A DNA stretch of 64,000 nucleotides from a virus. This document shows, piece after piece, positions 33,680 to 64,000 of the stretch. Location: IMG/VR virus record IMGVR_UViG_3300010157_000059, positions 8,158 to 72,157 of that record; one strand, written 5' to 3'. The notes beneath the pieces are model-generated. The model was not told the DNA's origin and made no database searches. It worked only from the letters and a program-made list of their open reading frames with translations. The number at the start of each line of letters is the position of its first letter. The stretch's first letter is position 1. The position numbers and the translations under genes were made by a program.

Positions 33680-34053
33680 TGAAGTCGGAAGGTCAAAAGC
33701 AGTCTCTAAAGCACGAAAAGCGTTTAGAGAAAGCCCTCGGAGGCCAGCGTTCTGCTGGCTCCGGGGCCTTCTGGTCTCGTAAGGGTGATGTCAGGACTAA
33801 TGACTTCTTGATTGAACACAAGTGGACAGGTAAGAAGTCTTTCACTCTTAAATCAGATGTACTAGAAAAGATAGTTATGGAAGCTATCTTAGATAGTCGC
33901 ATAGCCGCATTGGGGATATCTTTGAACGGCAAAAATTACGTGCTCTTGGAGGAACACGATTTTATTGAACTCCGAGAATTTAGAAATGAGCACGTATGTA
34001 TGACGACAACGTCCCTTGGGCATGGCGATACGACGCCAAATGCAGAGGACTAG
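33679..34053 (+). CDS. Holliday junction resolvase-like PD-(D/E)xK nuclease
   Basis: HEKR...SGA...KGDV...LIEHK. Confidence 0.75.
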   Translation: MKSEGQKQSLKHEKRLEKALGGQRSAGSGAFWSRKGDVRTNDFLIEHKWTGKKSFTLKSDVLEKIVMEAILDSRIAALGISLNGKNYVLLEEHDFIELREFRNEHVCMTTTSLGHGDTTPNAED

Positions 34054-34298
34054 ACACTGAACTTTTCTTTCCCCCCAGGGATAAGAATCTTTACGCACCC
34101 ATAGCAGAAAAAGCTAAAGCAATTTGTTTTGGTTACGACGGTGAGCCGCCTTGCCCAGTCCGTAAAGACTGCCTAAAAGAGGCAATTAAAAATGACGAGC
34201 AACATGGTATCTTTGGCGGTTTGTCTCATCGTGAAAGAAACGCTATGGTTAGAAAATATAAAGATTCCGGTAAAACTTTGGATGAATGGTTGGAGTAA
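33996..34298 (+). CDS. whiB: WhiB-family Fe-S transcription factor
   Basis: WRYDAKCRGLDTELFFP...AKAIC...CPVRKDC...GIFGGLSHRER. Confidence 0.9.
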   Translation: MYDDNVPWAWRYDAKCRGLDTELFFPPRDKNLYAPIAEKAKAICFGYDGEPPCPVRKDCLKEAIKNDEQHGIFGGLSHRERNAMVRKYKDSGKTLDEWLE

Positions 34299-37898: not shown

Positions 37899-38180
37899 GT
37901 GAGCGAAACACAAGAAGAAGAAAAATTTTTGCGGGTAAGCGGTGGATCTAATCCACAAGCTGTAGGGTCTGCTATAGCCCATGCGTTATATGAAAACCCT
38001 GTAATTAAAGTTCGTGCAGTAGGTGCTTCGGCAGTAAATCAAGCTGTTAAAGCTATTGCAATTGCCCGAGGGTATGTGGCCCCAAGAGGTTTAGATTTAG
38101 TTTGTAAGCCTGGATTTACATCTGTTGACTCCAGAGAAGGCACCATATCAGCAATTGTGTTTACAATTACTGCAAGTTAA
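37899..38180 (+). CDS. spoVS: SpoVS-family (Alba-like) nucleic-acid-binding protein
   Basis: LRVS..SNP.AVGSAIA...RAVGASAVNQAVKAIAIARGYVAP.GLDL...PGF...ISAI. Confidence 0.85.
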   Translation: MSETQEEEKFLRVSGGSNPQAVGSAIAHALYENPVIKVRAVGASAVNQAVKAIAIARGYVAPRGLDLVCKPGFTSVDSREGTISAIVFTITAS

Positions 38181-39982: not shown

Positions 39983-40054
39983 GGCATAGTAGTCCAAGTT
40001 AGAGACCGCCTATACAACGGAGGGAATGTGCAGGTTCAAGTCCTGCCTATGCCA
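39983..40054 (+). tRNA. tRNA-like element with degenerate anticodon arm (pseudo-tRNA)
   Basis: Acceptor GGCATAG/CTATGCC, D-stem GTC/GAC, T-arm GCAGG-TTCAAGT-CCTGC; anticodon stem only 3 of 5 paired; no CCA. Confidence 0.55.
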
Positions 40055-51125: not shown

Positions 51126-52589
51126 ATGGAGATTATATTTCTGGGCGGTGAAGTACCTTCTAACCGAGAACTGCTCATCCGTAATAACGTTAAAGCTATT
51201 GGGCTTAACTACTGGGCCCTGAAGCGTAGGGGTTTACCTAAGACCAAAGACTATCTATTATCAGAAAGATATCCTGATGATGTCAAGGTGTACGTGGACG
51301 GCGGAACTACAGCTGCGGCTAAAGCTGGGCTATCTGTACTAGAGCTCGAAGAATACTGTGAGGAATACCAAGACTGGGTATCTCTCAATGAGGATAGAAT
51401 TTCTGGAGCTACCGAATTTACTAACCCAGCTCTTGGAGATGCCTGGACTAAAACTCAGCGGGAAACTTTCTGGGAATACACTCCTGAAGGCATGTTTTGG
51501 CCGGTATGGTCAGGTGGTCATATTGACTTAGCGCATTTGGCTAAAAATTATAGTAATTTTGCTATTCCAGGTGAGTTTGTAGAATCTGATAAAGCTCTAG
51601 CAGCTAAGGTGCGAGCTTTAGGGCATCAGTACGAATTTAACGTGCATGTTATTGCTTGTGCAAAACCCGATAATATGCGTCAAGTTCCCTTTGAAACGGC
51701 CAGCACTTTGTCATGGCTAAGTCCTATGATGAGGGGCGAGACTATCGTATGGGATGGTAAAAAGTTAGTTCGTTACCCAAAAAAGATGAAGGATCAAGCC
51801 CGTCCACGTTACAAAAGGATCATTGAGGAAGCAGGCTTAGATTTTGATAAGATACTTGAAGATGATCCTAATGAGGTAACTAACCTCGCAATTTGGTCAT
51901 ACTTAGAATTGGAGAAGACATTGGACAACAATGACCCACTGTTATCTGATAACAGCGATTACATAGATGATCCCGGTGACGCGGAAACAGGGGGTAATAA
52001 CCCTGATAACAGTGTGGTTCAGGTGCGGAAAGAACTTGCACAAATTCCTCTATCAGAGATGAAAACTTTGCCCGTTTTTGGGGTAGAAAATCGTACTGTA
52101 GTAGACCATGATTCAGACGGTAGAACAGTCATAAAGAGTGTCCCAGTACTCAGTTCTAATAGTGTATCTTTACGCCAATGTGACACCTGTTTTGTGGCAT
52201 CAAACTGCCCTGCATTCAAGCCTCAAAGCGCTTGTTCTTTTAGTCTTCCAGTAGAGGTAAAAACCAAAGATCAACTACGCGCATTGCTTAATGCAATCAT
52301 TGAAATGCAGGGCGCTCGTGTAGCATTTGCAAGGTTTTCTGAGGAATTAAATGGTGGCTACCCTGACCCAAATACTGGTCAAGAAATTGATAGACTATTC
52401 AAGTTAGTAGAACAGCTAAAGAAGTTAGAATCTAACAATGAGTTCGTTAGGATGACTGTTGAACGTCAAACTAGCGGGGGCGTTTTAAGTAATTTATTTG
52501 GTGATAAAGCAGCCCCTTTAAAGGACCTTCCTAACGGGGGTTTGGGCGAAGAACAGGTTACTAGAATCATCTCTGATTCTATAGATTAA
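51126..52589 (+). CDS. tRNA-guanine transglycosylase (TGT/DpdA)-like fold protein with C-terminal Cys cluster
   Basis: VYVDGG (cf. DSG), FWPVW, H-x-x-x...PFETASTLSW...RGE (cf. PF.S.DS.SW...G); C-terminal CxxC-x5-C-x8-C. Confidence 0.45.
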   Translation: MEIIFLGGEVPSNRELLIRNNVKAIGLNYWALKRRGLPKTKDYLLSERYPDDVKVYVDGGTTAAAKAGLSVLELEEYCEEYQDWVSLNEDRISGATEFTNPALGDAWTKTQRETFWEYTPEGMFWPVWSGGHIDLAHLAKNYSNFAIPGEFVESDKALAAKVRALGHQYEFNVHVIACAKPDNMRQVPFETASTLSWLSPMMRGETIVWDGKKLVRYPKKMKDQARPRYKRIIEEAGLDFDKILEDDPNEVTNLAIWSYLELEKTLDNNDPLLSDNSDYIDDPGDAETGGNNPDNSVVQVRKELAQIPLSEMKTLPVFGVENRTVVDHDSDGRTVIKSVPVLSSNSVSLRQCDTCFVASNCPAFKPQSACSFSLPVEVKTKDQLRALLNAIIEMQGARVAFARFSEELNGGYPDPNTGQEIDRLFKLVEQLKKLESNNEFVRMTVERQTSGGVLSNLFGDKAAPLKDLPNGGLGEEQVTRIISDSID

Positions 52590-54732: not shown

Positions 54733-54743
54733 GAGCCCAACAT

Positions 54744-54784
54744 AAACAATAGCCCCCGGCCTTATGGTCGGGGGCTATTGTTTT
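54744..54784. terminator. bidirectional terminator at the strand switch
   Basis: AAACAATAGCCCCCGGCC / GGTCGGGGGCTATTGTTT between convergent gene blocks. Confidence 0.85.
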
Positions 54785-55575: not shown

Positions 55576-55768
55576 TGTCCCTCTTGTTAATTGTTGTTTT
55601 AGCGCTTTCTATGACGCCAATCAGGTTAAGAACTGATACTTGACGTTCTCCATTTACGTCAATTGTTGAGAATTCAATTGCGCTTTTCATTACTACATCT
55701 AACACGCTAGTTACTAGATCGTTAGATGCTTTAACAATCTTGATCATGATTTCTTCTGTGTTATCCAT
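55568..55768 (-). CDS. hypothetical protein
   Basis: Start reassigned to ATG 55768. Confidence 0.5.
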   Translation of the reverse strand: MDNTEEIMIKIVKASNDLVTSVLDVVMKSAIEFSTIDVNGERQVSVLNLIGVIESAKTTINKRDNG

Positions 55769-56051
55769 CTGTCTTTTCCTTTTTCTTCTGGTTGGTACCC
55801 TTGAGTGTTGACACGTCAAAGCCTACTTGGCGTAGTGACATGTACATGTTTTGGCGTTGGCGGCCATTGCCAGCTGGCGTAGATGGGATAGATACTTGTT
55901 GCTTCGTTACGGGGTTAAGTACTTTGACGTGCTTATTACCTTTCTTACTAACAACAAAGCCGGCTCGTTCCAACTCACGAACAATCCGGCGTATCTCTTT
56001 ATCTGGAGAGATCATTGCTAGTGCAAAAATTACTTTTCTATATTCATTCAT
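55761..56051 (-). CDS. HicA-like (dsRBD-fold) protein
   Basis: IVRELERAGFVV..KGNKHVKV...VSIPSTP. Confidence 0.7.
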   Translation of the reverse strand: MNEYRKVIFALAMISPDKEIRRIVRELERAGFVVSKKGNKHVKVLNPVTKQQVSIPSTPAGNGRQRQNMYMSLRQVGFDVSTLKGTNQKKKEKTDG

Positions 56052-56693: not shown

Positions 56694-56832
56694 GTGGGCG
56701 TCCTTTGTTTACGTTGGTTAAACGAGTTGTTAACCATTAAGGTATTTTAATTGTCTTGTGGGGGTCACTACTTAAGTCAGATAAGATTGAGATACAACCT
56801 CCTCCAAGGTGTGTAGTTATCCCCGTAACTAA

Positions 56833-58464: not shown

Positions 58465-58522
58465 TTGTTTCTCCTTGTTTATGTTGGACGGGCGCTGTTA
58501 CACGCCCGCCCAACGATATATA

Positions 58523-62473: not shown

Positions 62474-62767
62474 TTATTGTTGTTTATGTTGGAGCCTTGG
62501 TGATCTACGCAATAATGGTGCTGAATCGTATTCTTCAGGCCACTCATCTAAATGTATTCCACGATCAGCTAGATACGCAAGCAGTTCTTTGGTAGCAACG
62601 TATGCATCTACTGCTGGGTTGAGTAACTGAGCCCACAAGGGATTGCCTCCCTCACTACCTCCCTCTTCAAACCACAAACGTATCCGATCGTACGGTGATA
62701 CGTTTGTGAGTCTTGGTTCCTCGTCTTCATCAAATGAATCCCATTGCATATCCTCTGGAATGAGCAT
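62474..62767 (-). CDS. hypothetical protein
   Basis: AAGGAG RBS. Confidence 0.6.
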   Translation of the reverse strand: MLIPEDMQWDSFDEDEEPRLTNVSPYDRIRLWFEEGGSEGGNPLWAQLLNPAVDAYVATKELLAYLADRGIHLDEWPEEYDSAPLLRRSPRLQHKQQ

Positions 62768-62787
62768 TGATGTTTCTCCTTAAGGTA

Positions 62788-63102
62788 TTAGTCGCAAAAA
62801 TCTAATGCGAATTCTGGCTCTTGTAACTCTAAGCGTGCGTGCACTATGTTAGCTACGCCGGTCTCTTCATATGGCATGAAACGATATGAGAGCGCATCTC
62901 CACGCTTGATGATTGCGTACTGAGGCACATCTTTATCACTGATTAATGAGAGTGCAGCACGTAAGCCTGTTGCTGAACCACGATGGTAATCAGACAAATC
63001 AAGGTCTGCATCTTCTATTTCAGCAAGGTCAGCAAGTTCAATCATCTTAACTAGGTCATTGATGAGTCGTTTGACTTTCTTTTTCTTTATTTTCTTAGGC
63101 AT
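62788..63102 (-). CDS. hypothetical protein
   Basis: AGGAG RBS; Lys-rich N-terminus. Confidence 0.6.
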   Translation of the reverse strand: MPKKIKKKKVKRLINDLVKMIELADLAEIEDADLDLSDYHRGSATGLRAALSLISDKDVPQYAIIKRGDALSYRFMPYEETGVANIVHARLELQEPEFALDFCD

Positions 63103-63607
63103 TGTTATCTTCTCCTATAGTGTTGAGATCATGACCTTCTTTAGGGCAGCAGTCTTCAGTGTCCTCACACATGTAAGACCCCATTTTGGAACCTCGCACC
63201 CACAAGATGTCTCTATACATAGGCGTACAACCTGTTGGTGGAAGTATGAAATTGAGCCTGGACTGCACGTCTTCAAGTGTAAATTCTTCAGGATAATTAG
63301 CGAAGATTACAACAGTTTCTTTATTGTCTACCGCCATTTCTAAGTATTCTTTAGGAAACATGTGATTACCTGTGTACCAAAATACTTTTTGTAGCCTGCC
63401 TCCTGAGCTTGTGTCTACTACTGCAATGCACACGGCACGTTGGCTAAACTCCGCATGGCTTTGCAACTCTTTAGTTAGAAATACAGGGCCTTCTATATAT
63501 GGAGACATACCAATTGCGGTGTAATCTACTATACGTTCAGTACCAAGTACTATTTCTTTTGCTTCCTCAGCAGTAACTGAGGTAACCCCTGGGCTTATTT
63601 CTTCCAT
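63095..63607 (-). CDS. hypothetical protein (C-terminal SYMC.....CCP..G)
   Basis: AAAGG RBS; 170 aa. Confidence 0.6.
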   Translation of the reverse strand: MEEISPGVTSVTAEEAKEIVLGTERIVDYTAIGMSPYIEGPVFLTKELQSHAEFSQRAVCIAVVDTSSGGRLQKVFWYTGNHMFPKEYLEMAVDNKETVVIFANYPEEFTLEDVQSRLNFILPPTGCTPMYRDILWVRGSKMGSYMCEDTEDCCPKEGHDLNTIGEDNNA

Positions 63608-63639
63608 TTACTTGCCTTTCTATTTACATAGATTAATGA

Positions 63640-63940
63640 AGAGAGAAGAGAGATTTATTTATTCAAGTGCGTTACCGAAATGATTGTCTGTTAACTGTCT
63701 GATTAACAATACGATGCATAGCCTATAGTTTGTTGTCCCGCAGGAAACTAACTATTACTACACGAATCCATACCTACAGCTTCCTCATCGACCACCTGAA
63801 GACTAGTACTAAGGGACAGTAATTGGTACAATAGTATTTACTGTTTTCTACATTGCTTACTCTGAACGCCTATTGGATTCTTCAGTTTTCCTATCATTTA
63901 GTTTGCATTGGGCACTGATAATGTAATCTCTCTTCTCTCT
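63640..63940 (-). ncRNA. candidate ~300-nt highly structured ncRNA
   Basis: 16-bp perfect terminal inverted repeat plus several nested helices; no sizeable ORF. Confidence 0.55.
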
Positions 63941-64000
63941 TTCCCTCCTGATGATGGTCAGGCTGCGAGTGGCTGGTCTGGCAATGTTTATGTTGGACCA

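Follow-up and report, generated by a model that had tools for sequence, protein, structure and literature searches.

A long-stemmed non-coding element in WhiB-encoding myovirus contigs is a candidate for a new family of structured phage RNA

We describe here a non-coding element, closed by a long perfect stem, in a 64,000-nucleotide (nt) stretch of viral DNA (the window), which comprises bases 8158-72157 of the linear, 72,157-base IMG/VR record IMGVR_UViG_3300010157_000059. With moderate confidence, we interpret this element as a conserved, structured phage RNA that is processed from a transcript and represents a new, four-member family in WhiB-encoding myovirus contigs. The element probably acts at the level of RNA, and this RNA is probably either released from the transcript of the downstream operon or leads it. 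The record is rated 77% complete, with about 23% of the genome absent from the contig. Window position 64000 is also the contig end, and the closing stem of the element ends 59 nt short of it. Around the element, the genes lie on the minus strand, to which we refer as the sense strand. An earlier note, drawn up from the letters of the window, had proposed a standalone structured RNA of about 300 nt at this place.

The element is bounded by an exact 17-nt inverted repeat, in which AAGAGAGAAGAGAGATT at 63639-63655 is the reverse complement of 63925-63941 and which closes a 303-nt segment free of open reading frames (ORFs). The strings quoted in the earlier note are all present where it had placed them; its terminal repeat is indeed exact, but had been taken for 16 nt. 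Among stems of at least 14 bp (G-U pairs allowed, arms 200-400 nt apart), the closing stem is the longest in the 72-kb contig; the same scan returned six stems over both strands, the other four all being 14 bp long. With up to three mismatches, AAGAGAGAAGAGAGATT matches the window four times, compared to a mean of 0.24 matches in shuffled windows, and none of 100 shuffles reached four. As had been noted, the segment holds no sizeable ORF, and no open frame on either strand is common to the four homologues described below. A leader peptide was rejected as a candidate, since the short start codons that three of the four genomes have in the 5' arm or ahead of it open different peptides.

The family consists of the window copy and its counterparts on three further IMG/VR contigs, referred to as loci L002, L003 and L085. 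L002 (IMGVR_UViG_3300027969_000087) was reached via the neighbouring AAA ATPase, and its element region gave an nhmmer E-value of 4e-27. The nhmmer match of L003 (IMGVR_UViG_3300032309_001647) is weak (E = 3e-4) and was confirmed by two motifs, AACTGWARAAT and, downstream of it, TTCYTGCGRGACA, which are spaced by 141, 137 and 141 nt in the window, L002 and L003, respectively. L085 (IMGVR_UViG_3300028392_002400) was reached via an alignment of the ATPase and recognised by the closing stem, here 14 bp around 271 nt, and the UGCG motif. All four members possess the features that define the family: a closing stem of 14-19 bp, 255-270 nt inside it, a hairpin with a UGCG loop (TTCYTGCGRGAC) and an upstream hairpin with a CRACAWAAACA loop. 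They also share a gene order, in which an upstream gene and the element are followed by an ORF for a Lys/Arg-rich peptide of 28-29 amino acids (aa; in L002, L003 and L085, not in the window), a 170-aa family (in the window, L002 and L085), a 104-aa family, the AAA ATPase and a vWA protein. The upstream gene differs, belonging to a 156-aa family in L002 and a 146-aa family in L085 and being a 129-aa ORF in L003. The syntenic position in genomes as diverged as these four favours vertical descent. The window and L002 have a nucleotide identity of 66.7% in the element, 78% in the upstream linker and 59% in the adjacent 170-aa gene, and identical blocks of 11-17 bases persist in the element.

Searches of viral, metagenome and genome collections yielded no further members, and the family stays at four. 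Among viral contigs, the exact repeat arms had no match, a conserved 16-mer occurred in 36 stretches of which nhmmer supported only the L002 contig, and both the two-motif pattern and a pattern combining the hairpin loop with UGCG retrieved two known members each. In metagenome contigs, the two-motif pattern gave 32 stretches, among which only one (L079) was real, being the L002 contig again. In genome contigs, the hairpin-loop and UGCG pattern matched seven stretches from unrelated phyla without an nhmmer match, that is, by chance. For cultured-phage relatives, blastn in its 'distant' mode found no match among 50,697 phage records.

Comparison of the four sequences indicates which helices are preserved while their sequences change. 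The closing stem, P1, measures 17, 19, 18 and 14 bp in the window, L002, L003 and L085, respectively, and its 5' arms are purine-rich around GAGAG or GGGAG, its 3' arms pyrimidine-rich. Across 18 aligned pair columns, three are invariant, four show one-sided changes, all of them G-U on the gene-sense strand, and 11 show two-sided changes. Inside P1, helix P1b reads AGUGC/GCACU in the window and UACGC/GCGUA in L002, a two-sided change in three of five pairs between the two sequences compared. P2 occupies one anchored position in all members, with 7, 8, 5 and 4 bp, respectively, and each of the seven aligned pairs has changed on both sides. For a helix between two random 12-nt stretches, the chance of at least 7 bp is 0.028 and that of at least 8 bp 0.007, which makes P2 strong in the window and L002; for at least 5 and at least 4 bp, the chances are 0.27 and 0.62, and P2 is accordingly weak in L003 and L085. 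The bulged hairpin with the UGCG tetraloop (39-48 nt), which carries two further stems, has the same RNAfold minimum free energy (MFE) design with differing stem sequences in all four members, and 10 of the 17 columns in its three helices show two-sided change.

Other parts are less uniformly kept. Helix Y pairs as GAAUCCA/UGGAUUC in the window, GAAUGGU/GUUAUUC in L002, UCC/GGA in L003 and AUCC/GGAU in L085; the L002 version contains three G-U or U-G pairs and thus forms on the minus strand only. Motif A, which overlaps its 5' arm, is present in L085 in a shortened form. In the proposed fold, this motif (AACUG..AAUCC) is single-stranded and closes a variable hairpin domain, and P2 is a junction helix. 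Hairpin H3 is matched in L002 by ACAGUC/GGCUGU with AUAC-GAAA-GUAU; L003 and L085 have in common a GAUAA-loop hairpin at a different distance from the anchors, so that its homology to H3 is uncertain. The H5 region carries a 9-nt deletion in L002 and a different hairpin at the same place in L003. Measured against these data, the fold of the earlier note holds in four helices: the terminal stem, AGTGC/GCACT, GAATCCA/TGGATTC and ACAGTAA/TTACTGT are all backed by the comparison with the three homologues. Its helix AGGAAACTAA/TCAGTTTTCCT clashes with the conserved UGCG-capped hairpin, whose bases it takes, and is unpaired in L002 in our manual reading of the window-L002 alignment. Two helices lack conservation, among them TGTTAA/TTAACA, which sits in the stretch deleted in L002, and ATGCA/TGCAT and TGTCCC/GGGACA cross or overlap supported helices. 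The element also turned out to be larger than had been proposed, as two conserved upstream hairpins, H0 and Hb, run to the contig end at 64000. H0, located past the stop of the gene upstream, loses part of its 5' arm to the contig end in the window and is complete in L002, L003 and L085, where it has 11-12 bp with differing stems, the same loop motif (consensus C(A/G)ACA(U/A)AAACA) and z-scores of -5.3, -4.0 and -5.95. Equivalents of Hb, found by manual reading without a separate statistical control, are CCUU/AAGG (L002), CCCCU/AGGGG (L003) and CCCUUU/AAAGGG (L085).

MAFFT alignments misplace the 3' arms and bulges, and pair counts were therefore taken from per-sequence helix tables and from an alignment fitted to a covariance model. 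The model was built from the window and L002 only, using an RNAalifold structure. It aligns L003 over all 323 positions with 21.2 bits, corresponding to E-values of 2e-4 in 245 kb and 7.5e-5 in 86 kb. In the resulting three-row alignment, in which the middle 134 nt of L003 are unaligned, standard pairs make up 99.4% of 154 cells, and two-sided change is seen in 25 of 58 pairs, values that none of 500 shuffles reached in either measure; for P1, this alignment gives two-sided change in 8 of 16 pairs. When the partners were slid by 1-3 columns, only 37-50% of the cells paired, with 0-4 two-sided pair changes. Two other relatives, L011 and L097, gave no match to the model.

The sense strand is mostly preferred, in agreement with the earlier note, which had pointed to the minus strand as the better RNA candidate. 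The UGCG hairpin folds on this strand with MFEs of -16.4, -14.2, -14.3 and -13.8 kcal/mol (z = -3.35, -2.00, -2.66 and -2.65 in the window, L002, L003 and L085), compared to -8.2, -5.0, -11.0 and -10.2 kcal/mol (z = -0.77, +0.59, -1.82 and -2.48) on the antisense strand, so that sense is lower in all four. For the whole element, the sense and antisense MFEs are -82.4 and -80.1 kcal/mol in the window, -91.7 and -79.5 in L002, and -82.1 and -73.1 in L085. The G-U pairs of the helix tables, 20 in number, become A-C mismatches on the opposite strand; less biased than this count are the four arm mismatches of P1 and the energies of the UGCG hairpin. With helix-preserving changes among the homologues, the proposal of a conserved, structured, non-coding element has stood up to comparison.

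No sigma-70-like promoter or intrinsic terminator adjoining the element was found on the sense strand, so that the 'standalone' RNA of the earlier note is not supported and co-transcription with the neighbouring genes is the simplest picture. The RNA would then be made within a transcript that starts ahead of the element, in the upstream gene, and continues into the operon behind it. The long, unbroken P1 duplex could insulate the fold and would be the type of substrate used by a double-strand-specific ribonuclease (RNase) such as RNase III; cleavage would free a stable RNA of about 270-300 nt and part the upstream from the downstream messages. Enzymes of this type cut uninterrupted duplexes such as the 14-19 bp of P1, as at the RNase III sites of ribosomal RNA precursors and phage T7 early messages, and we therefore prefer release of an RNA of this size. 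The conserved loops and single-stranded motifs, along with the bulged UGCG hairpin, may serve as a protein-binding platform, for which a candidate partner would be the Lys/Arg-rich peptide whose ORF follows the element in three of the four genomes. Going further, it is conceivable but improbable that the element is the RNA half of a phage ribonucleoprotein with this basic peptide, which would capture a host machine in Actinobacteria as a phage-made mimic; this machine might be RNA polymerase, as with 6S/Ms1 RNA, or the anti-Shine-Dalgarno end of the ribosome, contacted via the GAGAG- and CUCUC-rich arms.

The main rival to a released RNA is a 5' leader that acts in cis on the downstream operon, stays attached and controls read-through, message stability or translation, perhaps responding to a phage protein; we consider this leader unlikely. 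In each of the four genomes, the element precedes the same genes, and in three no other non-coding feature separates it from the first ORF, which follows at 31 nt in the window (170-aa gene) and at about 20 nt in L002 and L085 (small basic ORF). The lack of a sense-strand terminator-like site before the downstream genes and of an own promoter would suit a leader, as would the L003 upstream hairpin, whose following U-run is terminator-like and would be in keeping with either attenuation or a new transcription unit; a Shine-Dalgarno-like stretch is locked inside Hb. However, the downstream start sites lie outside every conserved helix, and the distance to the next ORF varies from about 20 to 340 nt, since in L003 the small ORF comes only after a further 340-nt non-coding stretch. 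Accordingly, the first downstream feature is not the same: the 170-aa gene in the window, the small ORF in L002 and L085, and a non-coding block in L003. In addition, some 300 nt with a clamp of 14-19 bp are large for a leader, and the gene content implies neither a ligand nor a protein.

Several points weigh against the interpretation as a processed, conserved RNA. The helix tables were picked by eye and accepted standard pairs only, so that their counts, 216 of 216 pair cells standard and 20 of these G-U, are biased, and the model-fitted alignment leans to its own structure, which was derived from two of its three rows. In L085 the covariance model matches only the UGCG loop (E = 9.2), the short versions of P2 and helix Y in L003 and L085 are within chance, and four members are too few for covariation statistics of the R-scape type. 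The whole element of L003 folds slightly better on the antisense strand (-89.5 compared to -87.3 kcal/mol for sense). The small basic ORF was not found in the contig of the window, and both cleavage by RNase III and binding of the peptide are purely inferred steps. Conserved complementarity of a long inverted repeat is equally expected of a DNA site for one protein. Finally, the earlier note had named folding no better than shuffled controls as a refuting outcome; the full 301 nt fold better than shuffles on both strands (z = -4.05 for plus, -3.61 for minus), but the interior does not, because the terminal stem alone supplies the signal: the 269-nt interior without the closing stem has z-scores of -0.30 (minus) and -0.18 (plus), with 78 and 82 of 200 shuffles, respectively, at least as stable. 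The inner helices are therefore at chance level in the window sequence alone, and the window by itself proves the closing stem and nothing further.

Such an interior would also be expected if the segment had no function of its own, either as a spacer in which only the duplex is selected, as a message stabiliser or processing site, or as a decayed mobile element with terminal inverted repeats. The small family of four and the complete 94.1-kb relative L097 could be read in the same way. The L097 record has direct terminal repeats and an ATPase with 61% identity, and at the syntenic place it carries a different, 630-nt non-coding block instead of the element. We regard this explanation as very improbable. 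Blocks of 11-17 identical bases have been kept between the window and L002 although the adjacent 170-aa proteins are only 40% identical, the motif spacing is held at 137-141 nt in three genomes, and the design of the interior hairpin is kept with differing sequences in all four. Against a mobile element, there is one copy per record, and no direct repeat of flanking bases was seen beside the arms. A miniature inverted-repeat transposable element, whose ends the earlier note had named as an alternative for the terminal repeats, was rejected on these grounds (one copy in the contig and per related locus, no flanking direct repeat visible, syntenic position).

Alternatively, the arms could be inverted binding or crossover sites of one protein at the level of DNA, as in an invertible promoter segment, a pair of operators that loop together or a site of the origin type. 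About 260-270 intergenic bp upstream of an operon, flanked by inverted repeats of 14-19 bp, would fit such a site, co-changing arms are also expected if one protein recognises both, the two strands of the element fold equally well in the window and antisense slightly better in L003, and the missing part of the genome could encode a recombinase. Among known systems, the fim switch and the Bacteroides invertons are invertible DNA segments flanked by inverted repeats, and the element resembles them in having about 270 bp between its repeats upstream of an operon. It differs from them in its compensated interior hairpins, and helix-preserving changes in the UGCG hairpin, P2 and P1b would be needless for DNA. 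In all four arm mismatches a G of the sense-strand 5' arm faces a T, for which the chance under random transitions is about 1 in 16. Pfam families of recombinases, integrases or transposases were not found among the 63 window ORFs (E up to 1e-4) or among seven flanking proteins of the window and five of the relatives (E up to 0.01), in a contig that represents the genome without about 23% of its length. The interior has the same orientation relative to the flanking genes in all four assemblies, and the contig break does not fall at the repeat arms. Because of the compensated interior helices, the lack of a recombinase or transposase family and the single copy per record, DNA-level readings are ranked low and appear improbable.

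The element has no counterpart among the known RNA families searched. The Rfam check suggested in the earlier note was run with Rfam 15 at E-values up to 10 on window positions 62500-64000 and L002 3500-4200, and returned only chance-level eukaryotic small nucleolar, long non-coding and microRNA families at 10-22 bits, compared to thresholds of 40-120. The families covered, as far as the library contains them, include transfer-messenger RNA, RNase P, group I/II introns, riboswitches, 6S, Y RNA and small ribozymes. Scans of L003, L085 and L097 at the Rfam gathering thresholds gave only transfer RNAs (tRNAs) elsewhere in the loci, and ARAGORN found no tRNA or transfer-messenger RNA at the element. 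A group I or II intron was rejected, as the flanking genes differ between the genomes and no intron model matched. In retrons, terminal inverted repeats close the RNA, and the reverse transcriptase gene lies directly downstream; P1 (14-19 bp) would provide such repeats for an msr-msd, but the reverse transcriptase Pfam family was absent from the 63 window ORFs and 12 flanking proteins, downstream genes included, and this candidate was rejected as well.

Stem-flanked substrates of RNase III are found in ribosomal RNA precursors and at the processing sites of phage T7 early message, and the element is similar to these in that a long, near-perfect duplex flanks a structured RNA and its pairing is kept while the sequence changes. 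Sites of the T7 type, however, are single hairpins without a conserved 260-nt interior, and, unlike in ribosomal RNA precursors, the interior of the element is not ribosomal or another known RNA. With GOLLD and ROOL the element has in common that it would be a large non-coding phage RNA known from comparative analysis, with no function assigned and with tRNA genes nearby (in L003, L085 and L097). The element differs in being shorter (about 300-380 nt), in having four members in one narrow phage group and in matching no Rfam family, which would include GOLLD and ROOL if Rfam 15 holds them. Both are described as large structured RNAs associated with phages or prophages (bioRxiv 10.1101/2024.12.08.627333).

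In 6S and Ms1 RNAs, the 5' and 3' sequences pair. The element shares their size class and, as suggested by WhiB, probably the actinobacterial host group. Compared by description only, the element is tentatively modelled from four sequences as a basal rod (P1, P1b, P2) followed by a multi-branched junction with a variable domain, and 6S/Ms1 are described as a rod-like hairpin with a central bubble (PMC9130861). Ms1 is reported to be about 230-300 nt long and to have diverged so far that, beyond close relatives, neither Rfam nor homology searches based on structure succeed (PMC9130861); the blank Rfam result therefore leaves room for kinship. A word-based search of the literature on phage structured RNAs and 6S/Ms1, with supplements outside its scope, found no description of the element.

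Table 1. Parts of the element on the sense strand and selected genes of the window.
Feature	Position in window	Strand	Remarks
H0, upstream hairpin cut by contig end	63969-64000	-	Loop CAACAUAAACAU 63984-63995; 3' arm GACCAGCCAC 63969-63978; 5 nt of 5' arm left
Hb, small hairpin CCUGA/UCAGG	63947-63962	-	3' arm purine-rich, Shine-Dalgarno-like, directly 5' of closing stem
P1 closing stem, 5' arm	63925-63941	-	Purine-rich AAGAGAGAAGAGAGAUU; exact complement of 63639-63655
P1 closing stem, 3' arm	63639-63655	-	Pyrimidine-rich AAUCUCUCUUCUCUCUU
P1b 5' arm AGUGC	63912-63916	-	Partner 63666-63670
P1b 3' arm GCACU	63666-63670	-	Partner 63912-63916
P2 5' arm AAAUGAU	63893-63899	-	Partner 63678-63684
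P2 3' arm AUCAUUU	63678-63684	-	Directly after conserved CAGAC
Motif A AACUGAAGAAUCC	63875-63887	-	Conserved; last bases are helix Y 5' arm (63874-63880)
Helix Y 3' arm UGGAUUC	63764-63770	-	Partner 63874-63880; adjoins UGCG hairpin
Hairpin H3 ACAGUAA...UUACUGU, inner UAC/GUA	63816-63844	-	
Bulged hairpin with UGCG tetraloop	63716-63763	-	Loop 63739-63742; bulged C after 3-bp loop-closing helix
Hairpin H5 UUGUUAAU/GUUAACAG	63688-63709	-	Variable region, present in window
First downstream gene, 170 aa	63095-63607	-	Start codon 31 nt past P1 end; no family match
WhiB regulator	33996-34298	+	
SpoVS-like protein	37899-38180	+	
Queuine tRNA-ribosyltransferase-like protein (PHROG 887)	51126-52589	+	May point to modified DNA bases
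HicA-toxin-like match	55761-56051	-	Weak, under Pfam cut-off

An oriented motif, CCAACA[T/C/G]AAACA(A), recurs throughout the phage group, and the H0 loop is among its copies. Sites in the window lie at 54738-54749 (+), 58475-58486 (-), 56705-56716 (-), 62480-62491 (-) and 63984-63995 (-), and with up to two mismatches the motif has 19 matches compared to 9.1 expected. Many sites were also found in L002-L011 and L085, and CAACACAAACA occurs in 6-13 copies per 13-kb locus in L004-L010, nearly all in the gene sense. Often a copy directly follows a stop codon, with a hairpin ahead of it and a Shine-Dalgarno site close behind; some copies fall within ORFs. Possible roles are those of a promoter, of a site that is start-associated or stoperator-like, and of a site bound by a protein.

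A second set of non-coding modules occurs in the relatives at L003:3994-4262, L097:3223-3858, L085:3345-3460 and L002:2621-2680, with single copies in L006-L011. It comprises a hairpin, CCUGAGCAUG..UAUAAACUGCUCA, often 20-35 nt ahead of a start codon; a unit GAUUCCG..UAAUAAG that precedes this hairpin; and, immediately ahead of the small basic ORF, a block of about 150 nt in which L003 and L097 share about 80% identity. The regular expressions used found none of these modules in the contig of the window. The basic ORF itself (MPKKDKELILSLSRANSKRK...) encodes 28-29 residues, has its own Shine-Dalgarno site and comes after non-coding elements in four relatives (L002:4047-4136, L003:4279-4365, L085:4314-4403, L097:3853-3939). 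Three relatives carry a tRNA gene that follows the non-coding elements at a distance of about 1 kb and sits between the genes of the 104-aa and 97-aa families (L003:5153-5226, L085:5336-5409, L097:4380-4453). The window has no tRNA at this site; its tRNAs are at 39983 and 56306.

A more distant relative, L011 (ATPase 61% identical), holds a 263-nt ORF-free element at 1327-1589, which is the same in L012. Its closing stem is perfect over 16 bp and purine-rich in the 5' arm, and a small hairpin and an intrinsic terminator come after it. The element of L011 folds with -90.4 kcal/mol (z = -4.1) in the sense and -66.2 kcal/mol in the antisense direction and has no Rfam match. As it shows no sequence similarity to the family and, in L011, no match to the covariance model, it was rejected as a member; it may be an analogous or a very diverged RNA gene.

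The contig encodes tail sheath, tube and baseplate proteins, DnaB, primase, a family A polymerase, RecA, a B12-type ribonucleotide reductase and WhiB. By this gene content, the source phage is a myovirus and most likely has an actinobacterial host, the host group being suggested by the WhiB gene, with which the 'actinophage' guess of the earlier note is consistent. Next to the element, the 170-aa protein has a homologue in L002 at 40% identity and no close relatives among viral contigs. In a collection of 5.8 billion proteins it retrieved only itself, on five contigs with a longest one of 93,969 bases; a fuller assembly of the source phage thus exists in public data. Pfam and PHROG searches gave no family for the 170-, 104- and 71-aa proteins and the upstream genes of the relatives, and the 97-aa protein had one sub-threshold match to DnaT_2.

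Few large structured phage RNAs are known, and most of them are without a known function. The narrow family, with four members, and a function that is still a guess limit the present weight of the finding. Nevertheless, each new RNA family backed by comparison is a starting point toward RNA-based host takeover, regulation or anti-defence. In this group of uncultured actinobacterial myoviruses, two other repeated non-coding motifs occur near the same genes, and the region may therefore be a hub of control at the level of RNA or of sites.

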